From assembly GCA_017619375.1 (NCBI GenBank), contig JAFZSL010000002.1, forward strand, positions 23,679-87,678: a stretch of 64,000 nucleotides of DNA, in the 5' to 3' direction. This DNA comes from Prevotella sp. (GTDB lineage Bacteria; Bacteroidota; Bacteroidia; Bacteroidales; Bacteroidaceae). The notes beneath the pieces are model-generated. The model was given only the letters and a program-made list of their open reading frames with translations, did no database searches and was not told the origin of the DNA. The position numbers and the translations under genes were made by a program. This document shows positions 12,834-40,072 of this stretch, one piece after another (positions within the stretch are counted from its first letter, which is position 1; each line of letters begins with the position of its first letter).

Positions 12834-13068
12834 TACGTAGTTTGTTTGTTTCAAAAGTTTTAGAGCCGTGCATGTCATATCGCCAAGGCTGTCAGAATGC
12901 TCTCTTCCATGTAAATGCGGTCAAAGGTTTTGCAAAGTTGCAGCAAAAATAGTAAAAAAATAGGATTTGCAAGTCAGTCGAGATGAAGAATTTGCTTTTC
13001 TTTGGAGGAAAGATGATGATTTGCTTTAAAAAAGAGGTTTTTCTTGCTTGTTCATCCGTATTTTTCCT

Positions 13069-13076
13069 TAATTTTG
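13069..13076 (+). promoter_or_regulatory. Bacteroidetes sigma-A -7 element for the GH43 lipoprotein gene
   Basis: TAATTTTG matches TAnnTTTG about 100 nt upstream of the start, in an AT-rich divergent spacer. Confidence 0.45.
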
Positions 13077-13178
13077 CTGACACAATCCCAACCATTGATT
13101 AAGCGAGTGCTGAAGAGCTTGCTCATGATGCCGTGCATGAAAAATGGTAGAATGAAATTCAAACTACATTTTTACGAT

Positions 13179-14825
13179 ATGAAAGACAAGATTCTGAAAA
13201 TCGCCGTTGTCGCTGTCTGCGGCATCATGGCGGCAACTTCCTGCACCCAGCAGGTGAAAGAGGATGAACCAGTGCTGAAAACCGTGGGCAATCCGTATCT
13301 CCCCCTTTGGGAACATATCCCCGATGGTGAGCCATACGTCTTTGAAGACCCCGACAATCCCGGCAAACAGCGTGTGTATATCTATGGTTCGCACGACAGT
13401 CGTATTACCGACTATTGTGGCATGGAATTCGTCGTATGGTCGGCACCTGTCGAGGACCTGAGCCAGTGGCGCTACGAGGGCGAGGTGTTCAAAGTGGACA
13501 AGAACGCGAAAGGCGAACCTTTCGACTCTGTTGGCACGGCCGATGTGCTCTTCGCCCCCGACGTGGCATTGATGACCGACGCTGATGGCCAGAAAACCTA
13601 TTACCTCTATCCCAACGACCAAGTGGGCGGACGCAACGGCCTCATCGCGAAGAGCGACAAGCCCACCGGCCCCTTCACGGTGTGCAATTGGAGCAAGGAC
13701 GACCCTAACAAGACCGATGGCGTGCTGCAGTTCGACCCCGCCGTCTTCGTCGATGACGATGGTCGTGTCTATGGCTATTGGGGATTCGAGAGGTCTTACT
13801 GCGCCGAACTCGACCCCGCCACGATGGCGACGGTGAAACCAGGAGCCAAGGTAGTGGAGGACATGGTGTCGGGGAAGAACCAGCCTGGTGATTTCCGCTT
13901 CTTCGAAGCCTCCTCCATCCGTAAGATCAAGGACAAATATGTCTTCATTTACAGTCGTTGGACGAAAGATGGAGAGTTCGGACTTCCCGACACCAATTAC
14001 ACCCTGGCTTACGCCTATAGTGACAACCCCCTTGGCCCCTGGACCTACGGCGGCACCATCATCGACGGACGCGGACGCGAGACCGATGAGCAGGGCAACA
14101 CCATCGCCTCCGCCGTCGTCTCGGGAAACACCCATGGCAGCATCTGCCTCGTCAACGACCAGTGGTATGTCTTCTATCATCGCCAGACCGGCACTAATGA
14201 GTTCGCCCGCCAGGCCATGGTGGCACCCATCACCGTCAAGGTGGAGGAAGGCCCTGGAGGCAAGGTGGAGATTTCCGAGGGAGAATTCAATTCCGAAGGC
14301 TTTGCCCTCAACGGCCTCGACCCGCTGGAGCGCCATTCTGCCGGCATCGCCTGCTGGCTCACCGGTCCGAAAGTGGCGGAGCACAAATGGCCCGACAACA
14401 TCTTCTACGGCTCATATGTGGCTGCTTCATACGGCAACGATGACAAGTTCGATGCTCCCTATGACTTACGCAACAACACCAACCCGGTGGTCAACAACAC
14501 CGATGGCTCCATCGTGGGTTACAAGTATTTCAACTTCACCGCCACTCAGGGGAAGAAGGACTTGAAACTGTTGTTGAAACTCAAGCCTGAGGGCATCGAC
14601 GGCACCATACAGGTGATGGCAGACAGACCATGGGCCTCAAAAGGCGGCAAATTGCTGGGCACTGTCGAACTGAAAGCCGACATGCCCAAGGAGTCGACAG
14701 AACTGACCACCGTCCTTCCCGGACTGACGGAACTGAAGGACAAGCACGCCATCTTCTTTGTCTTCTCTTCGGATACCAAGGAGAAGAGTCTCTGCACTCT
14801 CGAGGACTTCGCCTTTTCTTTTTAG
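13179..14825 (+). CDS. GH43 glycoside hydrolase lipoprotein with C-terminal CBM6-like beta-sandwich
   Basis: Lipobox MAATSC; GNPYLPLWEHIPDGEP; FAPDV; FDPAVFVDDDG; FFEASS; GNTHGS. Start at ATG 13179 preferred. Confidence 0.88.
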   Translation: MKDKILKIAVVAVCGIMAATSCTQQVKEDEPVLKTVGNPYLPLWEHIPDGEPYVFEDPDNPGKQRVYIYGSHDSRITDYCGMEFVVWSAPVEDLSQWRYEGEVFKVDKNAKGEPFDSVGTADVLFAPDVALMTDADGQKTYYLYPNDQVGGRNGLIAKSDKPTGPFTVCNWSKDDPNKTDGVLQFDPAVFVDDDGRVYGYWGFERSYCAELDPATMATVKPGAKVVEDMVSGKNQPGDFRFFEASSIRKIKDKYVFIYSRWTKDGEFGLPDTNYTLAYAYSDNPLGPWTYGGTIIDGRGRETDEQGNTIASAVVSGNTHGSICLVNDQWYVFYHRQTGTNEFARQAMVAPITVKVEEGPGGKVEISEGEFNSEGFALNGLDPLERHSAGIACWLTGPKVAEHKWPDNIFYGSYVAASYGNDDKFDAPYDLRNNTNPVVNNTDGSIVGYKYFNFTATQGKKDLKLLLKLKPEGIDGTIQVMADRPWASKGGKLLGTVELKADMPKESTELTTVLPGLTELKDKHAIFFVFSSDTKEKSLCTLEDFAFSF

Positions 14826-14917
14826 GAGAAAATAGGAGCAAGTAGGAAAAAAATAGGAGGCTCTCCTAAAGCCTCCTACTTGCTCCTAAAACCTCCTATT
14901 ATTTCCTATTTCCTAAA
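14823..14917. repeat. Inverted array of 10-bp-spaced TAGGA/TCCTA units between convergent genes
   Basis: TAGGA at 14823, 14833, 14843, 14854; TCCTA at 14864, 14874, 14884, 14894, 14904, 14911. Confidence 0.85.
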
Positions 14918-17800
14918 CAGGTCTTTCTCTTTTACCATGACCACGGTGCCATATTTGGACAATTCCTTGAGGTTGAGTTTCTTCTTATTACCCACGATGC
15001 CGAACACGCGGTGCCCGTCGTTGTTTTTGATATTGGCATCGTAGAATTTCAACATATCCTCCATGGTGGCGTTGTTGTAGAGTGTGGCCATTCCTGTGTT
15101 GGGGTCGCTCGTGAAACCTACCAGTTGGGCGCTGGCGATCGACGAACCGATTTCCCTGAACGACGGGAAGTCGCTGCTAAGGTTGTTGACACTTTCGTGT
15201 TGGGCAGTGACGAAGGTCTTTTTCACGGCAGGCATGTCACCGAGCAGCGAGTCCACCAGTGCAATGGCCTCCATGGTCTTGTCGCCTTGAGTGCCCACCA
15301 GTGAGAGGAAGGCAGTGGGTGAGTTGGGATACAACAACCGTGAGCGGGTGTACAAATGTGCTCCTGTGGAATAAGCCATCGACCGGAACTCCCTCACCTC
15401 TTGGAAGAGTATGGAAGACATGCCGCCACCGAAATACTCCTCAAGAAGCCATGCGGGAACGCGGCTCTCCTTGGTGGGCAGCGCCTTTATCGGGTCGTAG
15501 GTGAAGAAGAGCGTCTGTCGCGATTTGGGCATGTCATAGACATATACCAACGGCTTGTCGTAGGTGGCAATCGGCGTGGAATAGTCGACGAAGGGTGCCT
15601 TGCCCACGGGGATGGTGGCACGCACCACGTTTTCTACCACCTGGTTGTCGAGCGAGCCGCTATAGACAATGGTGCTTGTGGCGTTGAACACCGACTTGAA
15701 GGCATCGATCAATTCCTGCCCGGTCAACTTCTTCACTTCCTTGTAGGTGATGCGGTTGAGTTGGGCGGACTCGTTGCCTGTCAACACTTTTTGTATGAGT
15801 GCCCTTAAGACGTCAGCGTTCTCCTCAGTGAGTGACTTCTCCTCCGACTTCGCAGTATCCTTGACCTTCTTCAGCGCCTTGTCATTGGACTGGACACGGG
15901 AAAGGAAGTGCTGCACCAGTCGCATGGTGGGTTCGAAATACTTGTCCACGCCGGTGACCTCCATTTCGACACTACCATTGCTGGAGGAGAACGTCATGCT
16001 GGCACCATACGCTTGCAAGGCGGCGCCCAGTTGCTGACGCGTCAGTGAGTCGGTGCCGAGGGAGTTGAGCAGTTCGCAGGCGGTGGAGAGTTTCCTGTCG
16101 GCCTTCTCACCCTTGTTGTAATTCACGTTCAGTTTGAAGAGGTCGTTCACAGGATTCTTCACCATGTAAAGGGCTGACTTCCCTCCCAGTGGTGTCTTGA
16201 CGACGTCGTTCTCAAAGTCGAGCAGTCGCGGTTCGACGTTTTCAACGGGGATTTGTGCTAATCGTTTGGCGTATTCCGACTCCGCGTCCCTGTTCTTGGG
16301 TTTCACCGGTGTGTATCCTGGCTGGCTCAACTTGTCCTTTTCATAACTCCCGTATTTCTTCTTGAATCTTAAAAAGGGTTTTTCAAAATATCGCTTGGCG
16401 GCGGCCATCACATCCTGCTTGGTCAGGGAGTTGATGGCGTTCACCTTGTCGATGTATTCCTGCCAACTGTGACCAGTGCTCATCACCATCACCATCTTCA
16501 TCGCCCTGTCGTCTATGGTCTCCAACTGGCGGAAGGCGCTGCGGTAGGCCTCCTGCTTCTGGATGTTGAACTGTTCGTCGCTGAAGTCGCCGTCGACGAT
16601 GCGCTTGATTTGGGCGAGACACGCATTCTCTGCCTTCTCCGTCTTTCCCAGGAGGTTGGGTGCGAGGAGTAACGCAAACACCCCTGCGTCGTTCAAGTTG
16701 AGCGGCAATGCGGCGGCCAACAGCACCTGTCCCTCGTTGGACAGTGAGTCGAGCATGCCGGCCTTGCCGTTGAACAACAAACTGGAAGCCAACTCCAGGG
16801 CGTTGGCGTCCCTCTCGAAATCCGTCGTGCCATTGAAGGCCAGGGCTTCCAGACTGATGATGGGTATGGGCATTTTCACCTCTATGGTGCGCTCTGCCCC
16901 AATTTCTGGCAGGGTGGATTTCACCCGAGTGGGTTTCACGCCTTTCGGAATGCGTCCGAAGGTGCTTTCCAACAGTGGCATGACACTATCGGAGTCGAAG
17001 TCGCCGCAGAGTACGATGCCCATGTTGCTACCGACATAGTACTTGTCGTAGAAAGCCTTCATCTCCGACAGCCTGGGGTTCTTCAGGTTCTCCGTGCTGC
17101 CGATGACGGGATAGGCGTAGGGTTGTGTGCCGAAGAGTTCGGCCATCAGTTTCTCGCGGATGGTGGTCTCCATCCTGTCCGACCCCATGTTCTTCTCTTC
17201 ATACACCGTCTCCAACTCGCCTTGGAACAGGCGGAAGACAGGGTTGATGAGTCGGTCGCTGTTCAAGCGGCACCAATGCTCGATGTATTGGGGGACGAAG
17301 ATATTGTGGTAGAATGTGAGGTCATACGACGTGCCCGCGTTCAATTTGCTGCCGCCATAGAGTGAGATGAGGCTGTTGAACTCGTTGGGGATGGCATATT
17401 CCCCCGCTTTCTGGCTGAGGCGGTTGATGTTTTTCTGGATGGCTGTGCGCTGCGCCTCGTCGGTAGTGGCGGCAAGGCGTTCGTAAGCAGCGGCGATGCT
17501 GTCGAGCCAGGGCTTCTCTGCAGCGTAATCCACCGTGCCGATTTCATCAGTGCCTTTGAACATGATGTGTTCGAAATAGTGGGCGATGCCCGTGTTGGGA
17601 CAGTCCTTCGCACCGGCATTGACGACAACGGCGCCAAAGACCTTGGGTTGGGTGTGGTCTTCGTTCAGCCACACGGTCATGCCGTTGCTCAAGGTCAGTT
17701 CCTTCACTTCCAACAATTTTGACGTCTGTGCGTATGACGGGCAAACCATGCCGGCCAACAACAGCAAAGTGCAAAGCCTTCCAAATAATTTCATTTTCAT
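14906..17800 (-). CDS. M16 family (insulinase-like) zinc peptidase
   Basis: Signal peptide; TLSNGMTV; inverted zincin motif GIAHYFEHIMFKGT; ELETVYEEKN; second M16 half ending EVREFRSMAYS. Start at ATG 17800 preferred. Confidence 0.92.
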   Translation of the reverse strand: MKMKLFGRLCTLLLLAGMVCPSYAQTSKLLEVKELTLSNGMTVWLNEDHTQPKVFGAVVVNAGAKDCPNTGIAHYFEHIMFKGTDEIGTVDYAAEKPWLDSIAAAYERLAATTDEAQRTAIQKNINRLSQKAGEYAIPNEFNSLISLYGGSKLNAGTSYDLTFYHNIFVPQYIEHWCRLNSDRLINPVFRLFQGELETVYEEKNMGSDRMETTIREKLMAELFGTQPYAYPVIGSTENLKNPRLSEMKAFYDKYYVGSNMGIVLCGDFDSDSVMPLLESTFGRIPKGVKPTRVKSTLPEIGAERTIEVKMPIPIISLEALAFNGTTDFERDANALELASSLLFNGKAGMLDSLSNEGQVLLAAALPLNLNDAGVFALLLAPNLLGKTEKAENACLAQIKRIVDGDFSDEQFNIQKQEAYRSAFRQLETIDDRAMKMVMVMSTGHSWQEYIDKVNAINSLTKQDVMAAAKRYFEKPFLRFKKKYGSYEKDKLSQPGYTPVKPKNRDAESEYAKRLAQIPVENVEPRLLDFENDVVKTPLGGKSALYMVKNPVNDLFKLNVNYNKGEKADRKLSTACELLNSLGTDSLTRQQLGAALQAYGASMTFSSSNGSVEMEVTGVDKYFEPTMRLVQHFLSRVQSNDKALKKVKDTAKSEEKSLTEENADVLRALIQKVLTGNESAQLNRITYKEVKKLTGQELIDAFKSVFNATSTIVYSGSLDNQVVENVVRATIPVGKAPFVDYSTPIATYDKPLVYVYDMPKSRQTLFFTYDPIKALPTKESRVPAWLLEEYFGGGMSSILFQEVREFRSMAYSTGAHLYTRSRLLYPNSPTAFLSLVGTQGDKTMEAIALVDSLLGDMPAVKKTFVTAQHESVNNLSSDFPSFREIGSSIASAQLVGFTSDPNTGMATLYNNATMEDMLKFYDANIKNNDGHRVFGIVGNKKKLNLKELSKYGTVVMVKEKDLFRK

Positions 17801-18017
17801 GTCCGTGTATTTTGATTGATTATATTTTTGCAAAAGTAATGATTTTTCCTCATAATAAGACAAAATCTTGCAATAAAACCTGAAAACATTCAACCCGCAG
17901 ACTCTTTTTCAAGTGGATTCAGACTTTAAAATATGTTAATCTTTCGTAGGGAGTCATAACTAATGGTTATATTTGCAAAAATATTACAAATTTAAAAATC
18001 TCATCATTTTGAACATT

Positions 18018-18656: not shown

Positions 18657-21041
18657 ATGAAACACCATCCTGTTACACCCCTTGCCAAGTCGATGCTCTT
18701 GGCCCTTATGCTGTTCGTCCTCTCTTGCATGACGGGACAAGCGCAGACAAAAGTATGGAACGATGTCGTGGCGGGCTATGCCAACACGCCTGTAGTGAAA
18801 GTGACACGCGTGGCCTTATACGGCGACCGCACAGAACTTTCCATGCACATCGATTTCGTCAAAGGGCAGTGGATAGCCATCGCACCGAACACCGTGATCA
18901 AGGTAGATGGTAAGGACTATGTCGTGAAGGGAGCCACAGTGTTGACACTTGGAGAGCGCTTCACCATGTCGGAGGACACGTTGGATTTCGTGCTGACCTT
19001 CGAGCCTGTTCCCGCCAAGACGGAAAACCTCGACCTCGTGGAACCGGGAGGGTGGTGTGTGATGAACATTCGCGATGCAAGCCTCCTTCCCCAAGGCATC
19101 ACCGACACCTATTGGCGCGACGAGGCGACGGGCGATTGGCTCATCGGCTTTGCAAAAGACCATGTCGTCTATCAAAACGAGGTGTGGGACATCGCTGCTG
19201 TCAAGGAGAAAAAGGACGCCTATACACTTACCCTCCTCTTCAACAACATGCCTGGAGTGAAATGTGCTTTTCATTCAGAGGGCCATTCATTAAAAGCCAA
19301 GGTTGTCAAGGTGGGCAAGATGAAAAAAGGTCTGCGTACCATCACCATCGACGACGGAAAGCCCGTGACATGCAGTCCCATCACCACTGCCACGCTGCCT
19401 GATTACCCGGTAAAAGACACCCGCAGGGGATTCATCGACAACGGCTACAACCCCACCGACAGTGTGACCATCATCGGGTGGTTGAAGGACATGCCCGCAC
19501 AGGCTTGGCAAACAGGAAAGGAGTTCAAGGTGAGTTACGAGGACATCATCACCAACAAGGAGGAGAACGCCTACACCAAGATGGACTCCCTGGGGCGCTT
19601 CTCTTTCAAAATGCCACTGCTCAACTCTTCCGAGGTCTTCATCGACTGGGGGCGCACCACCGTCAACGCCTTCCTCGAGCCGGGCAAGACCTATTTCTTC
19701 CTGTACGACTTTAAAACAGGACAGAAACTCTGGATGGGCGACGACGTACGGGTGCAAAACGAAATACTTACGCATCCACGTTCCAGGGCAGAAGCTGATG
19801 TTCCATACGACCGCAATGATGTGGACCTCCTGGTTTATCAGGCGCAGACCGACAGCACACGACAGGTGCAGATGAAACATTTGGAAAACTTGCTCCAAAG
19901 CCATCCCACCTTGTCGCAAAGGTATGCCGACTACCAAGCAGGTTACTACCGCATGCTACAGGGACGTAACATCATGCAGGCCCAATACCATGCCAAAGAC
20001 CGCATCGTGCCAAAGGAAGTGCTCGACTACGTCGGCAACAACTTCTGGCAGAAAGCCCCCAAGCCATACACCCTCTACCGTGACTTCACGACGATGAACA
20101 ACGACTTTATGAGCGAACTCGTAACGGGACGAAACGAGGGCCTTCCGGAGATAATGGAACGATTGGAGCGAGATGGCAAGGTCACCCTGAGCGATGAGGA
20201 GAAGGAGCAACTTGCCGCCTATCCCGCTGCTGCCAAGAAGGTGCAGGAAGACTTCCTGAACGCAAAGGATGAAAACGAACGGCAAGCCGTTGTCGAAGCA
20301 TTCAACAGTTCGAAGATGGTGACCGTCTTGAACGGGTTGCTGGATAGATGCAAAGAACCTATGGCAACTTATGGTTTCATGCAGGTGCTGGATGTCGTCG
20401 ATTCCATCGGTTGTGACAAGACCCTGCGCGACATCATCCTGGCACAGCGCATCTATCAGCAGATAGACGCCATGCGCCAACCGGTTAGTGCCAATGTCTT
20501 GCAATTTGCTGAAAATGAAATCCAACTGCCTGCAGCATTCAACAGGGTGAAAGACTTGAACGACAAATACCTCGCCATCTTTCAGCGAGACATCTCCGAT
20601 TCACCCAGTTTGAAGTCGGCCAAGGACATGGTCGAGATGAGTGATGGCGAGCAGATTCTGCGCAAGATCATCGAACCTTATAAGGGAAAGTTGATTCTTC
20701 TCGACATCTGGGGCACTTGGTGCGGCCCATGCAAGGAAGCGCTCTCTCATTCCGCCGAGGAATACGAGCGATTGAAAGACATCGACATGGTGTTCCTCTA
20801 CTTGGCCAACCGCTCCGATGACGATTCGTGGAAGAATGTCATCAAGGAGTATGACGTCCTGGGAGACAACGTGGTGCACTACAACCTGCCCGCAGACCAG
20901 CAGAATGCAGTGGAAAACTTCCTCAATGTGCAGTTCTTCCCCACCTACCGCCTCATCGACCGCGACGGGCAGGTGCTGGATGTCAATGCCGACCCGCGCG
21001 ACCTGGAAAGACAGGCGAGGATGTTGGAGCAAATGAAATAG
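18657..21041 (+). CDS. Large secreted protein with C-terminal TlpA/thioredoxin-like domain
   Basis: Signal peptide; C-terminal YKGKLILLDIWGTWCGPCKE...FFPTYRLIDRDG. Confidence 0.85.
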   Translation: MKHHPVTPLAKSMLLALMLFVLSCMTGQAQTKVWNDVVAGYANTPVVKVTRVALYGDRTELSMHIDFVKGQWIAIAPNTVIKVDGKDYVVKGATVLTLGERFTMSEDTLDFVLTFEPVPAKTENLDLVEPGGWCVMNIRDASLLPQGITDTYWRDEATGDWLIGFAKDHVVYQNEVWDIAAVKEKKDAYTLTLLFNNMPGVKCAFHSEGHSLKAKVVKVGKMKKGLRTITIDDGKPVTCSPITTATLPDYPVKDTRRGFIDNGYNPTDSVTIIGWLKDMPAQAWQTGKEFKVSYEDIITNKEENAYTKMDSLGRFSFKMPLLNSSEVFIDWGRTTVNAFLEPGKTYFFLYDFKTGQKLWMGDDVRVQNEILTHPRSRAEADVPYDRNDVDLLVYQAQTDSTRQVQMKHLENLLQSHPTLSQRYADYQAGYYRMLQGRNIMQAQYHAKDRIVPKEVLDYVGNNFWQKAPKPYTLYRDFTTMNNDFMSELVTGRNEGLPEIMERLERDGKVTLSDEEKEQLAAYPAAAKKVQEDFLNAKDENERQAVVEAFNSSKMVTVLNGLLDRCKEPMATYGFMQVLDVVDSIGCDKTLRDIILAQRIYQQIDAMRQPVSANVLQFAENEIQLPAAFNRVKDLNDKYLAIFQRDISDSPSLKSAKDMVEMSDGEQILRKIIEPYKGKLILLDIWGTWCGPCKEALSHSAEEYERLKDIDMVFLYLANRSDDDSWKNVIKEYDVLGDNVVHYNLPADQQNAVENFLNVQFFPTYRLIDRDGQVLDVNADPRDLERQARMLEQMK

Positions 21042-21136
21042 GATTTTAAGGAGGGTATAGGAAAACTATAGACCCTAAGGATATTAGAGATCTTAGAAAA
21101 CCTTAGGAGAGCCCTGGGCTTATAGGAAGATATAAC
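21039..21136 (+). repeat. Degenerate 9-10-bp-spaced TAGGA-type array
   Basis: TAGGA/AAGGA/TAGA units at about 21039, 21048, 21058, 21068, 21077, 21104, 21123; ends in TATAAC like the 38779 copy. Confidence 0.55.
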
Positions 21137-25337: not shown

Positions 25338-25532
25338 CTTATTTTTGGCATTTATTTTTCTTTTTTACGTATCATTTACATGCCAATTCTTGGACATGCC
25401 AAGCTCATAGCGAGTTCCGCATGATTGTTCATCAAATTCTTTTTCATGCATCTTCTACAATCAACTGACGGCATCTTGTGATGTGCATTTCGTGCATCTC
25501 TTTTATGAAGAGAAAAAAACATCTTGTTTTGT

Positions 25533-25563
25533 TTTGCATTGCATACAATTTGCACTATCTTTG
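25533..25563 (+). promoter_or_regulatory. Sigma-A promoter of the membrane-protein gene at 25586
   Basis: TTTG (25533-25536), 19-nt spacer, TATCTTTG (25556-25563). Confidence 0.7.
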
Positions 25564-25585
25564 TAACATTGTAAAAAAAAATAAT

Positions 25586-26251
25586 ATGGCAAAAGTGAAT
25601 GTGGATAAGAAAAGAAGGGATTTGGAGCAGACGAAGAATTACGACCATCGTGTAAGGCTCTACGAAGACGGCAAGTATCATTGGTCGTACGACCTCAACA
25701 TGCTGAAAAACCCTGCGGTGCTGATTGATGTGTTCAAGGCGCTGGGCATGACGGTGGCCATCGTGGGGTTCATCATCGTTGTGATACAGGCTTGTGAGAA
25801 TGGGATACATGCGGAAGAAATGATGTTTGCTCTGAAGTTGATAGGTATCATGGTGGCAATCATGTTCGTGCTCAGCATATTGGGTTACTTGATTTATGCA
25901 GCGATGTCGGGTTGGACGTATACGGCGCTTTTCACCATGGATGATAATGGCGTGGTGCATGAACAGTCTCCTCGTGCGGATAAATTGGCGAAACGCATCG
26001 GTTGCCTCACCATATTTGTAGGGCTGCTGACACGCAAGCCTGGTGTGGCGGGGACGGGCATGTTGGCGGCAAGCCGGTCGACGATGTCCTCCAACTTCTC
26101 CTCTGTCAAGACGGTGAAGGCGATACGGCGGATGAACACCATCAAGGTGAATGAGCGATTTGAGAAAAATCGCGTGTATGTCAACGATGAAGACTTCGAT
26201 TTCGTCTATGACTATATCGCCTCTCATTGCCTGAATGCGAAAATCAAGTGA
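25586..26251 (+). CDS. Hypothetical membrane protein
   Basis: Two clear TM segments (VFKALGMTVAIVGFIIVVI; LIGIMVAIMFVLSILGYLIYA) and a soluble C-terminal region; promoter just upstream. Start at ATG 25586 preferred. Confidence 0.78.
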   Translation: MAKVNVDKKRRDLEQTKNYDHRVRLYEDGKYHWSYDLNMLKNPAVLIDVFKALGMTVAIVGFIIVVIQACENGIHAEEMMFALKLIGIMVAIMFVLSILGYLIYAAMSGWTYTALFTMDDNGVVHEQSPRADKLAKRIGCLTIFVGLLTRKPGVAGTGMLAASRSTMSSNFSSVKTVKAIRRMNTIKVNERFEKNRVYVNDEDFDFVYDYIASHCLNAKIK

Positions 26252-26257
26252 GGATAT

Positions 26258-26297
26258 CAGGAGGTCTTAGGAGCAAGTAGGAGGTCTTAAGTGGTCA
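26258..26297 (+). repeat. 10-bp-periodic TAGGAG array
   Basis: CAGGAGGTCT-TAGGAGCAAG-TAGGAGGTCT-TAAGTGGTCA; TAGGAGCAAGTAGGA is identical to 14833-14847. Confidence 0.75.
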
Positions 26298-36564: not shown

Positions 36565-38739
36565 TCATTTGACCAGTTTCCTGACCGTCTTGAGGAGTTG
36601 TTTGGAGGGAGCAGCTTCCCCGTTGTAGGGGATGAGCCACCATTTCACCGTCCAAGAGAGCGACTCACCAGGAGCAAGTTTGGTGTAAGCACCCTGGCTC
36701 TCTAATTCGATGTAGGTCTTTCCCCTGTTGACATAGACTTGTATCTCTGCTTCGTCGGGTGCCGGTTGGTTGGTGTTGAGGTCTTCGAATTTCTTCACCA
36801 TGAGCAAGCCCTTGTTGAGGTATGCCAGCCAGCCCTTTCCGTCGGCATTGATTTTCCGGTTGTCGTTAGCTTCGTCCGTGGTGTACCATGCGGCTTTGAA
36901 AGCAGTCTTGAAGGGAATGACCCCTGCCGGTGTGATTTGTTCAGCAGGTGCGTCAAAGAAGATGAGGCCCTCGTTGAGCACGCGTGTGATTTCCCATGGA
37001 GCCACCTGCTTTTCCACACCGCTTTCGTTGATGATGGTGTAGGTTACGGTGATGGCTTCCGATTTCTGGTCGGTGGTGAAAGACTTGCGGATGCGGAAGC
37101 CCAGTTTCTTGGAAACGTCGCTGGTGAGCACCAGCGTGTTGCCGTTCTGCTCCATCGTGTATGGGCCTTTGTCGTATTCTTGCACTGGCGGCCAGTTCCA
37201 TTCTTTTTGCGGACTGGTCCAGAAGGTGCTGCCGTATGCTTCTCTCATGGGCATTTGTGAGATGGCCTCTTGCCCCTTGTACTTGTATGACAGGATTTTT
37301 CCTCCTTCGCTTGGGTCGATGGTCATCTTGACATCGCCCGTTTGGATGTAGCATTTAGGGAAGATGACCCTGTAGTGTCCGCTGAGGTGCATGAAAGCGA
37401 AGAGGCGCAGCAGTCCGTCATAGTAGGCATCGAAATAGCCATCCTCGAAAGGTACGTGCTTGGCTTCCCACAACGCCTTTACAAACTCCTTGCTCTTCTC
37501 ATGAGAGCACATCATGGATGCGGCGGCCGTGGTGGCCACCAATCCGATGCTATGGCGCAGTTTACGGAATCCTCCTGCCTGCAGGATTTCATTCCCCTCG
37601 GGCAATGACCCGTCCACGCGGTATTGGTCGACGAAGGAGTCCACGCCCTGGGTGTAGAAGAAGTTTTGTATGCGCTCGCCATATTGGCGTTGCCATTCCT
37701 TGTCGGCGCAGCTCCACTCATAATCGAGGGCAATGTTCATGGGCACGCGCCACGAGTCGTAGCGGAAGTTGCTGCTGCCATTGCGGGGAGGAGTCTGCGG
37801 CTGTCCTTGTTGTCCTTGTGCCTGTGCTTGTCCCTGTCCTGGCGGCCTGCCTGGGAAGCGGGGCATCTGCATCTCGCTGCCGTCATATTGGCACATGTCG
37901 GGGTTGAGGCCCGTCTTCTCGTCAATGGCCTTGTGGAGGAACTCACGGCTCTTTCTGGCACATTCCATCCAATAGTCGCTGCGCCCGTCGTCGGCCCATC
38001 GCGCCCATACCTCATAGAAGGCGGGGATATGATAGGAGGGGTCGGTATAGCGCTGTCCGAATCCATCTGGCGTGAAGGTGATGAGTTTCGTCTCCGGGTC
38101 GATGAGGAACATTTTCTGTGGTCCCGACTGTTGCTGTCCCCCAAAGCCTCCAAATCCCCCAAAGCCTCCTCTCTGCTCAGGCTCGTATTCCTTGGGCATG
38201 GTGCAATTGAGGATATGTTGGGCTTCAGCCTTGTAATTGATGCCTGTGTCGTCGCCCCATCTGTTGGAGGCGAATATCAGGGCCGTGATGAAATACAACT
38301 CTCCGTCGGAGGCCGCTCCCTGGGCGTTGCGTGTGCCGTCGGTCTTCAAACTCCATGCGAAGTAGCCCTCTCGTGGCCCGTCCTTATGTTGCATGTATTT
38401 CTTGCTCCATCTCCATAGACGGTCGAAGATGTCTTTCTTGTCCATCTGCACGGCGATCATCAAGCCATAAGACATGCCTTCCGTTCGCACGTCATGGTTT
38501 TTGATGTCGCTGATGTAGCCCAGCGTGTCGCCCACCTCGAAGTACACCTTGTTGGGACCGGTGAACACATCGTTGAACACTTCCTGCATTTTTCTCTCAA
38601 CGGCCATGGGGTTGTAGCCCATTTCCACGAAGAGGTTGCGATACTGTTGGGTTTCAAAGCCGCCCTTGTCCCAAGGTTTCTGGGCTTGCATGCCGATGGC
38701 AGCCATGGCAAGGAACAGGAGGATAGACCATTTTTTCAT
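36565..38739 (-). CDS. GH8 glycoside hydrolase (xylanase/Rex-like branch) fused to a C-terminal DUF4380-like beta domain
   Basis: Signal peptide; DVRTEGMSYG; FDRLWRWS; GAASDGELYF; TDPSYHIPAF; FRYDSWRVPMNIALD; C-terminal GGKILSYKY...YGSTFWTSPQKEWNWPP. Confidence 0.88.
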   Translation of the reverse strand: MKKWSILLFLAMAAIGMQAQKPWDKGGFETQQYRNLFVEMGYNPMAVERKMQEVFNDVFTGPNKVYFEVGDTLGYISDIKNHDVRTEGMSYGLMIAVQMDKKDIFDRLWRWSKKYMQHKDGPREGYFAWSLKTDGTRNAQGAASDGELYFITALIFASNRWGDDTGINYKAEAQHILNCTMPKEYEPEQRGGFGGFGGFGGQQQSGPQKMFLIDPETKLITFTPDGFGQRYTDPSYHIPAFYEVWARWADDGRSDYWMECARKSREFLHKAIDEKTGLNPDMCQYDGSEMQMPRFPGRPPGQGQAQAQGQQGQPQTPPRNGSSNFRYDSWRVPMNIALDYEWSCADKEWQRQYGERIQNFFYTQGVDSFVDQYRVDGSLPEGNEILQAGGFRKLRHSIGLVATTAAASMMCSHEKSKEFVKALWEAKHVPFEDGYFDAYYDGLLRLFAFMHLSGHYRVIFPKCYIQTGDVKMTIDPSEGGKILSYKYKGQEAISQMPMREAYGSTFWTSPQKEWNWPPVQEYDKGPYTMEQNGNTLVLTSDVSKKLGFRIRKSFTTDQKSEAITVTYTIINESGVEKQVAPWEITRVLNEGLIFFDAPAEQITPAGVIPFKTAFKAAWYTTDEANDNRKINADGKGWLAYLNKGLLMVKKFEDLNTNQPAPDEAEIQVYVNRGKTYIELESQGAYTKLAPGESLSWTVKWWLIPYNGEAAPSKQLLKTVRKLVK

Positions 38740-38778: not shown

Positions 38779-38843
38779 TAGAAGGCAATAGGATAAGATA
38801 GGAGGCCATGGGAGGTATGGAGAGGCCATAGGGGTAGTATAAC
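38779..38843 (+). repeat. 10-bp-periodic TAGGA-type array
   Basis: TAGAA 38779, TAGGA 38789, TAGGA 38799, TGGGA 38809, TAGGG 38829, ending in TATAAC. Confidence 0.65.
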
Positions 38844-38854
38844 TCATGATGATT

Positions 38855-40072
38855 TCAAAGGCCGATTGCAGCCATGACCTTGTCGGTGGCACCCGCCTGT
38901 CCTTTGACGAATGTTCCGGCATCGTGGCTGACGGTGTCGAGGAACTTGGAGTCGTTGGCCAGACGGTCCATCGTCTCTTGGAAGGTGTCGGGGCCGTCCA
39001 CTTCGAATCCTCCTTTTACAGCGAGCAGGCCCTGGGCTTCTTGGAACCGCTTGTTGTTTGGTCCGAAGATGACAGGCATGTCCCATACGGCAGCCTCCAG
39101 CACGTTGTGGATTCCCACACCGAAGCCACCGCCCACATAGGCCACCTCGCCATATTGGTAGATGCTCGAGAGCAATCCGAAGCAGTTGATGATGAGACAA
39201 CGTGCTTCCGCAGCTTCCTCAGGGGTCGTTTCGGTATATAGCACCGTGGGCATCTTCAGCATCCCCTTTATCTGCCTCAGATGGTCTTCGCCGATGACGT
39301 GAGGCGCGATGATGAGCCGCCAGTCGCTATGCTTGTTGAAATAATTGATGAAGACATCTTCGTCAGGGGGCCAACTGGATCCCGCCACAAAGACGCGGTG
39401 TCCGCGAGAGAAAGCCTCGGCAATGGGGAGTTGTTTGGCGGCGTCCCTGATTTGCAAAACCCGGTCGAAGCGTGTGTCGCCCACCACCGTGGCGTTGTTC
39501 AGGCCGAGGCCTGCGAGCAAATTCCGGCTGGTCTCGTTCTGGACGTAGAAATGTGAGATGCATCTCAGCACATGTGAGTATTCGCGTCCGTACCATTGGA
39601 AGAATACTTGTTCGGGTCGGAAGATGCTCGACACGCTATAGACCGGCACTTTTCGGTGGCGGAGGATATGCAGGTAGTTGTACCAGAATTCGTACTTGAT
39701 GAAAAAGGCCATCACGGGGTGCACGAGCTTGAGGAATCGCCGTGCGTTCCCCGGTGTGTCTAATGGGAGGTAGCAGATGATGTCGGCCCCCTCGTAGTTC
39801 TTTCGCACTTCATATCCCGATGGTGAGAAGAAGGTGAGCAGGATTTTGTATTCGGGATGGTCGCGACGAAGGCGTTCCATCAGAGGTCGGCCTTGTTCAA
39901 ATTCTCCCAATGAAGCGGCATGGAACCACACGTACTGCGCCCCTTCCTCCACCTTCTCGCGCAAGATGTCGAATGCGGCGCGCTCACCACGCCACATCTT
40001 ACGCACCTTCTTGTCTATCAGACTGTAGATGGCCACGCCGAAGAGATAGAAGTATAGGAGGATGGAGTACAC
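38855..40072 (-). CDS. waaA: 3-deoxy-D-manno-octulosonic acid (Kdo) transferase
   Basis: VWFHAASLGEFEQ; TFFSPSGYE; YLPLDT; IKYEFW; GDTRFDRV; IIAPH; GIHNVLEAAVW. Confidence 0.95.
   Translation of the reverse strand: MYSILLYFYLFGVAIYSLIDKKVRKMWRGERAAFDILREKVEEGAQYVWFHAASLGEFEQGRPLMERLRRDHPEYKILLTFFSPSGYEVRKNYEGADIICYLPLDTPGNARRFLKLVHPVMAFFIKYEFWYNYLHILRHRKVPVYSVSSIFRPEQVFFQWYGREYSHVLRCISHFYVQNETSRNLLAGLGLNNATVVGDTRFDRVLQIRDAAKQLPIAEAFSRGHRVFVAGSSWPPDEDVFINYFNKHSDWRLIIAPHVIGEDHLRQIKGMLKMPTVLYTETTPEEAAEARCLIINCFGLLSSIYQYGEVAYVGGGFGVGIHNVLEAAVWDMPVIFGPNNKRFQEAQGLLAVKGGFEVDGPDTFQETMDRLANDSKFLDTVSHDAGTFVKGQAGATDKVMAAIGL

Follow-up and report, generated by a model that had tools for sequence, protein, structure and literature searches.

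TAGGA-N5 arrays of a Prevotella genome as a candidate dispersed minisatellite family, frequently starting on TAG stop codons

The rumen Prevotella genome studied here carries a large family of short tandem arrays, in which each unit is TAGG(A/T) followed by five variable bases (consensus TAGGAGGTTT), at ~97 loci across 38 contigs. We put at about even the chance that these TAGGA-N5 arrays are a lineage-specific dispersed minisatellite family, growing by slippage or template switching, seeded at TAGGA and tolerated at gene 3' ends. The arrays hold 3-20 units, most of them show a super-period of 20 bp, and TRF detected them in the genome with periods of 10, 20, 30 and 40. The consensus TAGGAGGTTT occurs in 21 chains and TAGGAGCAAG in 10. 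The sequence-only reading had claimed a TAGGA repeat family with a lag of 10 nt from four sites in the window (the whole 64,000-nucleotide stretch that was analysed), and the genome-wide counts bear this out far above a shuffled intergenic background. Same-strand TAGGA/TCCTA pairs at lag 10 numbered 174, versus ~3 at neighbouring lags, with harmonics in the autocorrelation at lags 20, 30, 40, 50 and 60. Intergenic lag-10 pairs numbered 144, whereas 100 dinucleotide-preserving shuffles gave 0.96 on average and never more than 4. Within the window TAGGA-N5-TAGGA matched 8 times against 0.07 expected, a count reached by 0 of 100 shuffles, and all four window arrays (beginning at 14823, 21039, 26258 and 38779) match their description.

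The arrays are not assembly artefacts, since identical copies are present in independent metagenome assemblies; 12 of the 97 loci lie at contig edges, and many arrays are decayed. The 4.3 Mb host genome (G000, 99.98% complete) contains ~100 decamer arrays together with tandem-repeat families of other periods (7, 9 and 11 bp): several heptamer and nonamer families and ~80 arrays of a second large family, the 11-mer GAGTTAAA-N3, which co-occurs with TAGGA arrays in the genomes G092 and G228 as well. Tandem repeats are in general scarce in bacterial genomes (PMC12699852), so the many arrays make this Prevotella genome an outlier. These TAGGA arrays were not described in the publications retrieved by our literature searches.

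To compare core and spacer, we used 30 period-20 arrays that TRF had found without the motif, and anchored one half of each on TAGG. The non-anchored half keeps T, A, G and G in 28, 30, 28 and 28 of the 30 arrays, respectively, whereas positions 6-9 differ between the halves in 19-22 of them. A conserved core with a variable spacer had been taken to exclude simple slippage. The contrast between core and spacer was confirmed; the exclusion is arguable, because slippage on pentamer microhomology would by itself maintain the core while the spacer could vary.

The family is almost entirely intergenic, 85 of the 97 loci being assigned to intergenic spacers. Genes were called with a greedy longest-ORF caller, whose stops are exact and whose starts, and a few ORFs, are unreliable. 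Arrays were found in 5.0% of convergent spacers versus 2.2-2.4% of the other spacer types, at a density of 0.317 per kb of convergent spacer versus 0.123 per kb of divergent spacer, so that the enrichment anticipated between convergent genes amounts to ~2-fold. A start at or near a gene 3' end, stated for all copies, is true of the window arrays but not of the family, in which 12 of the 97 loci lie in divergent spacers. The proposed enrichment at stop codons was found: 12 of the 43 sense arrays start at offset 0, on the TAG stop of the upstream gene, and at most 2 at any other offset, and TAG is the stop of 53% of genes upstream of sense arrays versus 18% genome-wide. In L002, an M16 ortholog lacking the array, TAGGA is already present at the stop. 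Array strand showed no association with gene direction, GC skew or gene-strand majority, and ~8 loci (85 assigned, 97 in total) contain both orientations. Arrays follow the 5S/rRNA operon ends in all four cases seen at contig edges, and some arrays fill short co-directional spacers. Many arrays sit just downstream of canonical hairpin terminators and hence probably beyond the transcript end. Codon-usage PCA of the array-flanked genes, used as an expression proxy, gave a shift that is confounded by spurious ORFs and was set aside.

The array at 14823-14917 lies between a GH43 gene (13044-14825, + strand) and a convergent M16 peptidase gene (14906-17893, - strand), whose 80-nt spacer is filled entirely by the array plus the stop codons. 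Its forward half (14823-14862, + strand) consists of four units, TAGGAGAAAA, TAGGAGCAAG, TAGGAAAAAAA and TAGGAGGCT, with TAGGA starting at 14823, 14833, 14843 and 14854. The inverted half (14864-14915, - strand) has six TCCTA units, starting at 14864, 14874, 14884, 14894, 14904 and 14911. The GH43 stop, TAG at 14823-14825, opens the first array unit; the TAG stop of the M16 gene is the complement of 14906-14908, inside the unit 14904-14908, and the last TCCTA unit (14911) falls within the M16 C-terminal codons (LFRK*). The coordinates bear out the claim that the TAG stops of the GH43, M16 and large TlpA genes are themselves array units. The shared sequence TAGGAGCAAGTAGGA is present at 14833 and 26268 (both + strand), as claimed, and recurs at 14874-14888 on the - strand.

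Pairing of the two halves is predicted to form a long imperfect hairpin (14823-14898) with stems 14823-14828/14893-14898, 14833-14847/14874-14888 and 14854-14859/14863-14868. Its minimum free energy is -41.5 kcal/mol (z -5.7), and 0 of 200 shuffles were equally stable. For the M16 transcript, a terminator-like site lies at 14841-14881 (- strand), where the stem-loop AAGTAGGAGGCTTTAGGAGAGCCTCCTATTT has a T-rich tail with a T-run behind it. The hairpin's tail on the GH43 strand is only T-rich. The locus thus has the layout of an intrinsic terminator, in which a stable stem-loop and then a T/U run come immediately after the stop codon, and array-less orthologous spacers carry ordinary hairpins at the position of the terminator-like site. 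Judging from this predicted fold and layout, the array most likely serves as the intrinsic terminator of the GH43/M16 spacer, clearly so for M16, and probably acts bidirectionally; transcripts would end at the hairpin. Unit order of the M16/GH43 array is kept in species in which identity of the flanking M16 protein is as low as 78%, suggesting constraint at this locus, for which terminator function could account.

The other three window arrays are all on the + strand. The decayed array at 21039-21136 has as its first unit the TAG stop (21039-21041) of a 794-aa TlpA/thioredoxin-like gene. It is species-specific: the site is empty in the G092 ortholog, and in the G228 ortholog the TAG stop is shared but carries no array. 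The short array at 26258-26297, of units CAGGAGGTCT, TAGGAGCAAG, TAGGAGGTCT and TAAG, follows a 256-aa gene and lies upstream of an AhpC/TSA-like gene; in G092 and G228 it is a diverged 10-bp-periodic remnant (TGAGAG cores) beside a conserved promoter region. The decayed array at 38779-38843, between the start of a GH8 gene (36565-38739, - strand) and the stop of a kdtA-like gene (38855-40072, - strand), is antisense to both and is missing from the orthologous regions of G092 and G228. Many cores are degenerate in the arrays at 21039-21136 and 38779-38843. In G092 and G228, one of the four window arrays is well kept, one is a diverged remnant and two are absent.

Among strains at 99.4-100% identity the arrays are identical, and neither length polymorphism nor hypervariability was seen; between species, arrays were gained, lost or decayed. 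Length differences come in unit steps: a 10-bp indel distinguishes the array at L001 from that at L003, and paralogous arrays behind two rRNA operons differ by gaps of 30 bp and by a net 10 bp. The arrays that follow the rRNA operons are long, at 19-20 units. TAGGA-N5 arrays occur in about 43 of 401 Prevotella species (~10%) and in 0 of 16 other families of the order. The preferred spacers are species-specific, with TAGGAGGTTT in the genome studied here, TAGGAAGTTC in G228 and CCTAGGA in G016.

Under the minisatellite explanation, replication slippage or unequal exchange would add and remove units in 10-, 20- and 30-bp steps, with the pentamer as microhomology. Units losing the core would leave amplification, so that the core would seem conserved while spacers drift. 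Existing TAGGA sequences, TAG-GA stops included, would seed new loci through microhomology-primed template switching or illegitimate recombination, with no dedicated transposase involved, and copies would be retained at harmless sites, behind stops and terminators and especially between convergent genes. At the GH43/M16 locus, an inverted pair of sub-arrays supplies both stops and the predicted hairpin and would have been co-opted as a terminator. In favour of this explanation are the unit-step length differences, the starts on stop codons, the TAGGA or TAG already present at the array-less M16 (L002) and TlpA (G228) stops, the weak constraint and turnover of the arrays, and the other tandem-repeat families of the genome. 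Most family copies look like tolerated self-expanding repeat DNA, and we infer both the slippage/template-switch mechanism and that the family in general has no host function. The absence of length polymorphism among near-identical strains means that ongoing slippage is not directly observed, and counts against this explanation. A genome of this kind can illustrate how minisatellites originate, here at TAG stops, how they spread without a transposase, and how they are co-opted, in this case to give stop codons and a terminator hairpin.

The TAGGA family may, by analogy, be placed among bacterial minisatellites of the same general kind as the cyanobacterial STRR (short tandemly repeated repetitive) heptamer families, reportedly described by Mazel et al. 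in 1990. STRR families consist of short tandem units at many dispersed, mostly intergenic loci, with several families per genome; they are lineage-specific and are not known to have an associated transposase or an established function. The arrays here likewise have a short head-to-tail unit, many unlinked loci, unit-step lengths and a patchy lineage range, with several families in one genome and no associated transposase. Unlike the uniform STRR heptamer of Cyanobacteria, the TAGGA unit is 10 nt long, with an invariant and a free pentamer, and its arrays are found in Bacteroidota (Prevotella) and are frequently seeded on TAG stops. A second likeness is to the direct repeats of the heptamer TAACTGA, which form hundreds of intergenic sets in Beggiatoaceae, some Cyanobacteria and five Bacteroidetes (PMC4679880). 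Both are intergenic sets of direct repeats with a patchy phylogeny and stop-codon-containing units, and for both there are neighbouring species without repeats at the same spacer (PMC4679880). In the best-studied case, however, most TAACTGA repeats closely precede a start codon and share one fixed 'forward' orientation, which suggested translational control (PMC4679880), whereas TAGGA arrays may face either way and are commonest at gene 3' ends and in convergent spacers.

A possible but doubtful alternative is that the arrays are phased DNA sites of a sequence-specific or architectural protein that reads TAGG once per helical turn, with a nucleoid-associated protein, a cooperative ribbon-helix-helix-type binder or gyrase wrapping as candidate readers. 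Such sites would mark or insulate gene 3' ends, for example through the relief or blockage of supercoils and read-through between convergent genes and behind rRNA operons. The invariant core and free spacer are consistent with this, as are the orientation independence, which fits a role at the DNA level, the enrichment in convergent spacers, the arrays behind all four rRNA operon ends seen, and the 11-bp period of the second large family. That the core and period are shared by ~43 of 401 species with differing spacers would be explained more directly by a trans-acting reader than by descent plus a slippage filter. The unit alternates GGAGG and TTTTA, and a wedge model predicts a curvature of 72 degrees per 31 bp for the consensus. 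With the wedge parameters used, the median predicted curvature is 40 degrees per 31 bp for arrays versus 27 for other intergenic DNA (p = 1e-5). This curvature, the arrays behind the four rRNA operon ends, the shared core and period, and the unit order kept at the GH43/M16 locus were counted against the minisatellite explanation.

Against phased sites, no candidate protein was found. No gene family recurs beside the arrays beyond large paralogous families, and the genes beside divergent-spacer arrays, as candidate autoregulated binders, offered nothing suggestive, being mutually unrelated and including some caller artefacts. The 7- and 9-bp families of the same genome behave alike, and the convergent enrichment is only ~2-fold, which a tolerated insertion of any kind would show too. 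Single loci are weakly constrained, since two window arrays are species-specific, one is a remnant, and many arrays are decayed. A strict 10.0-bp period also drifts off one face of B-DNA within ~10 units, and so leaves it in long arrays. The 10-bp period of the sequence-only reading stands; its emphasis on phasing by one helical turn is weakened by this drift and by the 7-, 9- and 11-bp families. Plasmid partition centromeres and operator arrays, such as the R1 and pSK41 parC sites and the omega-protein heptads, are tandem repeats of 7-20 bp, direct or inverted, that are bound cooperatively by ribbon-helix-helix proteins, and the likeness extends to repeats that include 20-bp units of two 10-bp halves. 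Those par and operator arrays are single loci linked to par or regulator genes, whereas TAGGA arrays occupy ~100 chromosomal loci, beside which neither a linked binder gene nor a par operon was found. We would venture only tentatively that TAGGA-N5 arrays, and perhaps the 11-mer GAGTTAAA-N3 arrays likewise, serve as cis-sites for a system of chromosome organisation that has gone unrecognised in some rumen Prevotella, in which a protein reads TAGG once per turn on curved DNA. If so, the arrays would label the places where transcription units end, those of every rRNA operon among them, and could for example load gyrase or block read-through and supercoil diffusion between convergent genes; the core conserved in >40 species with their own spacers would be the footprint of the reader, and the arrays would amount to a new kind of chromosomal landmark in a genus abundant in the rumen.

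We consider it improbable that the arrays act in RNA, as rut sites, as binding or sponge sites of an RNA-binding protein, or by anti-Shine-Dalgarno pairing with 16S rRNA. In co-directional spacers the C-rich strand is transcribed more often (27 vs 16 for TAGGA, 29 vs 16 for the 11-mer), a mild bias with a pooled binomial estimate of p ~0.014. The antisense unit AAACCUCCUA, which we take to resemble a rut site, is G-free with C runs every 10 nt, and the consensus contains a perfect GGAGG, the unit AGGAGGT. However, 37% of arrays are opposite, and those in convergent spacers have no strand preference; an orientation untied to transcription argues against a strand-specific role in RNA. The many arrays behind hairpin terminators, probably past the transcript end, speak against it too, and a Rfam scan of the window gave no match. 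The suggested array for an RNA-binding protein was not supported as regards a CsrA-type partner: CsrA (PF02599) had 0 matches in 35 Prevotella genomes, array-rich or array-free, with positive controls, which speaks against a CsrB-like sponge.

It is similarly hard to credit that all members of the family are transcription terminators whose hairpins come from inverted arrays. The GH43/M16 array folds strongly, scores as terminator-like and sits where relatives have ordinary terminator hairpins, and inverted array pairs are also present in further convergent spacers of this genome and of G228. Against this, both orientations are present in only ~8 of the 85 assigned loci, and some arrays lie in short co-directional or divergent spacers. 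General terminators were rejected because separate canonical terminators are equally frequent in array-bearing (12 of 27) and array-free (162 of 394) convergent spacers.

REP/BIME elements of enterobacteria and pseudomonads are imperfect palindromes of ~20-40 nt mobilised by RAYT; their hairpins can stabilise or terminate transcripts, and BIMEs bind gyrase and IHF, a parallel to the architectural-protein reading of TAGGA arrays. TAGGA arrays share with them their number, their extragenic position at transcription-unit ends and between convergent genes, their occasional inversion and their ability to form hairpins. The sequence-only suggestion of a REP/BIME-like element is nevertheless largely refuted and very improbable, as is any other transposase-driven miniature element: the units are 10-nt direct repeats and not palindromes, few loci (~8) are inverted, and loci with common units have unrelated flanks without conserved sequence, terminal repeats or target duplications. 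The linked REP-associated tyrosine transposase that had been proposed was absent from G000 (0 matches to Y1/RAYT, PF01797; 6 of 14 control genomes positive). Nor were related arrays seen in viral contigs, where a specific 30-mer had 0 matches; 68 scattered matches to a looser four-unit pattern, many in giant-virus bins, were judged unrelated.

In practice, the arrays break assemblies, as the 12 loci at contig edges show, and shape gene 3' ends, and they could be used to mark strains or species. When metagenomes were scanned with a 26-mer, 2 contigs of one relative (~93% identity) showed further repeat proliferation but revealed no mechanism.

The focal array lies between a GH43 gene (13044-14825, plus strand) and the convergent M16 peptidase gene (14906-17893, minus strand). 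Four TAGGA units on the plus strand (starts 14823, 14833, 14843 and 14854) are followed downstream by six TCCTA units (starts 14864, 14874, 14884, 14894, 14904 and 14911), and the 80-nt spacer is wholly occupied by the array and both stop codons, the GH43 stop being the first TAG of the array and the M16 TAG stop the complement of 14906-14908. Within the window TAGGAGCAAGTAGGA occurs at 14833 (+), 14874 (-) and 26268 (+), and the arrays at 21039-21136 and 38779-38843 are decayed versions. The sequence-only reading had described these arrays, with that at 26258-26297, as they stand in the sequence. The window contains 8 matches to TAGGA-N5-TAGGA, where 0.07 would be expected. The whole genome (4.26 Mb, 78 contigs, 51% G+C) holds 174 same-strand pairs at lag 10, compared with ~3 at neighbouring lags, with harmonics reaching lag 60; intergenic DNA alone holds 144, compared with 0.96 (maximum 4) in dinucleotide shuffles. 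The lag-10 signal is therefore present genome-wide and not confined to the four window sites.

Phased chains of at least three units number 107, versus 17 in reversed or complemented controls, and merge to ~97 loci on 38 contigs. In the consensus unit, TAGGAGGTTT, the first four positions do not vary, the fifth takes A or T, and the last five are variable (G/A, then T/A-rich). Many arrays show a 20-bp super-period, for example TAGGAGGTTT-TAGGAGCAAG or TAGGAGATTT-TAGGAGGAAA. TAGGAGGTTT is shared by 21 chains and TAGGAGCAAG by 10, and identical units recur amid unrelated flanks, so that no larger MITE-like element surrounds the arrays. For an ascertainment-free test of the core we used 30 period-20 arrays found independently of motif by TRF, each anchored on TAGG in one half. 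The opposite half carried T in 28/30, A in 30/30, G in 28/30 and G in 28/30, and positions 6-9 differed between halves in 19-22 of the 30, which shows a constrained TAGG core and an unconstrained spacer. One contig opens with an irregular array (C13:5-102 of the source genome) in which TCCTA is repeated without spacer or with 5-6-nt spacers (TCCTATCCTATCCTAATCTTATCCTA...), and here the pentamer is a unit by itself. Units of 9 bp (CTAGGAnnn, e.g. TCCTAGTAT) define a minor sub-family, which clusters regionally, in six spacers within 30 kb (C8:9068-39364), on a single strand throughout, that of the mostly minus-strand local genes.

Using a crude ORF map of our own, we assigned 85 loci to spacers. 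Arrays occupy 5.0% of convergent spacers and 2.2-2.4% of co-directional and divergent ones (0.317 per kb of convergent and 0.123 per kb of divergent spacer), so that the suspected enrichment between convergent genes held. In co-directional spacers 27 arrays are antisense and 16 sense, not tied to gene direction; array strand showed no association with GC skew or local gene-strand bias, and no recurrent gene family was found adjoining the arrays. The suspected enrichment at stop codons was also borne out: of the sense-oriented arrays lying between -35 and +60 nt relative to a stop codon (43 in all), 12 begin on the stop itself and at most two at any other offset, and TAG is the stop of 53% of genes before sense arrays versus 18% genome-wide. 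Arrays merely overrunning gene ends would place the first in-frame TAG about equally in unit 1, 2 or 3, which is not so. In four antisense arrays, the array edge makes a TAA stop.

An M16 ortholog without an array (L002) already ends ...AGGAAATAGGA, the TlpA-like gene has the same ...ATGAAATAG end in a second species (G228) and no array there, and the TlpA-like locus of G092 is an empty site ~70 nt shorter than in the source genome. These comparisons show the seed to be older than the array. The M16 C-terminus LFRK* (CTG TTY AGG AAA TAG/TAA) is conserved across Prevotella (window 14906-14920; L002, L004-L006), and its codons hold AGGAAATAG(GA), a natural candidate seed.

The most economical account, to which we give an even chance, is a minisatellite family with growth, seeding, selective filtering and occasional co-option. 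Arrays would expand and contract through slippage or unequal exchange on pentamer microhomology, a process that by itself would keep the core and free the spacer. New sites would be colonised at pre-existing TAGGA pentamers, TAG-GA stops included; selection would leave arrays only at harmless positions, and some may be co-opted as terminator hairpin or stop codons. Array length differences are unit steps: loci L001 and L003 differ by a 10-bp indel, and the paralogous arrays that follow the rRNA operons on C1 and C28 differ by whole units, with gaps of 30 bp and net 10 bp. The arrays at 14823, 21039 and 26258 are identical in independent same-species metagenome assemblies (99.4-100% over 4.7-10.5 kb); they are therefore real and not contingency-type hypervariable loci. 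In a more divergent strain (L021), differences fall mainly within the 26258 array and the adjoining promoter region is nearly unchanged. Beside this array, two long ORFs overlap on opposite strands (25478-26251, plus; 25376-26227, minus), neither with a Pfam match; public gene calls choose the plus-strand ORF (256 aa).

The main rival, a protein reading TAGG once per turn, is possible but distinctly less probable than the minisatellite account. In its favour, core and period are the same from species to species. Of 401 species-representative genomes of the genus, 43 contain (TAGGA-N5)x3 (chance ~0.01 per genome), with at least 10 matches in ~16 genomes and 302 in one; 16 other families of the order gave no matches. 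Spacer preference varies by species (TAGGAAGTTC in G228; CCTAGGA in G016, G047 and G353; ATAGGA in G203 and G269), while pentamer and 10-bp period stay constant, and array contexts in G228 are as in the source genome: between genes, past terminators, and as inverted pairs where genes converge. Association with rRNA operons also speaks for a reader. All four rRNA/5S operon ends visible at contig edges (C1:68494-68784, C28:1-450, C32:40618-40820 and C39:1-260) run into the same terminator hairpin, behind which lies a TAGGA array in one orientation or the other. Predicted curvature points the same way: a wedge model gives the consensus 72 degrees per 31 bp and real arrays a median of 40 degrees, compared with 27 in the rest of the intergenic DNA (p = 1e-5), which is suggestive and not extreme. 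Against a reader stand the 7- and 9-bp-period families that share the genome with the TAGGA arrays, the failure to find a candidate protein, and weak per-locus conservation: G092 (RGIG6036) and G228 (RUG13201) keep the 14823 array with the same central units (M16 protein 78% identical; the array is absent in G211), hold only a diverged 10-bp-periodic remnant of the 26258 array, and lack those at 21039 and 38779.

Roles at the RNA level are unlikely. The proposed RNA-binding-protein array, taken as a CsrB-like sponge, fails because CsrA is found in 0 of 35 genomes, and the window matched no known RNA family in Rfam. Many other arrays, in the source genome and a second species, start a few bases past a canonical hairpin-plus-T terminator, so at least these copies probably sit beyond the transcript end.

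The two halves of the focal copy are predicted to pair in one long hairpin with a free energy of -41.5 kcal/mol (z = -5.7; 0/200 shuffles equally stable). On the M16 strand a T-run comes directly after the apical stem TAGGAGGCT...AGCCTCCTA, and the site is scored as terminator-like. In M16 orthologs that are more distant, ordinary GC-rich hairpins occupy the same place. The focal copy is most likely the M16 terminator and probably also that of GH43, a putative role that would explain why it is the best conserved of the four window arrays. A general terminator role is quite improbable. A separate canonical terminator is present in 12/27 convergent spacers with an array versus 162/394 without, an equal frequency, and TAGGA arrays as a class are therefore not terminators.

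A transposase-driven element is very improbable, since the REP/BIME-like element once suggested would need palindromic units, which these are not, and no Y1/RAYT transposase was found in the genome. Phage origin was rejected, as viral contigs lack related arrays.

TRF (score at least 50) reports ~570 tandem repeats in the source genome. The 11-mer GGAGTTAAAGG (GAGTTAAA core plus 3 variable bases) is a second dispersed family, larger than the TAGGA one, with 81 arrays, none inside a gene (29 antisense versus 16 sense; e.g. C27:27977-28118, C30:73209-73421, C38:5917-6152, C53:143221-143254). It co-occurs with TAGGA arrays (486 matches in G092, 430 in G228, 22 in G205) and is practically lacking in 40 Prevotella genomes without them. 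The heptamer ATTGAA(A/G) forms 61 arrays of period 7 or 21 (e.g. C5:1-71, C54:71589-71640, C67:61108-61165, C36:3540-3590), mostly sense at 3' ends (23 sense versus 6 antisense, only 1 in a divergent spacer). TAGGA arrays are not so oriented, and the heptamer pattern hints at an element of gene 3' ends that is strand-specific and may act at the RNA level. Further families include several 9-mers and one AAATGGTAAGA 11-mer. The 10-bp period noted in the sequence-only reading stands, but it is not unique among these 7-, 9- and 11-mer families, which weakens the step to one helical turn. No earlier description of TAGGA arrays was found in the searchable literature; the nearest described analogues are the cyanobacterial STRR heptamers and the TAACTGA repeats of Beggiatoaceae (PMC4679880). 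Finally, metagenome contigs of one close relative (L151:2900-3400 and L152), ~93% identical to C5:2845-5745, stack three tandem families in one spacer: GTTGGAGAA-based ~27-bp units, a ~20-bp unit (CACTCACTGGGCGCAC...) and a six-unit TAGGA array. The corresponding C5 spacer is nearly repeat-free, with only one or two GTTGGAGAA-like copies.
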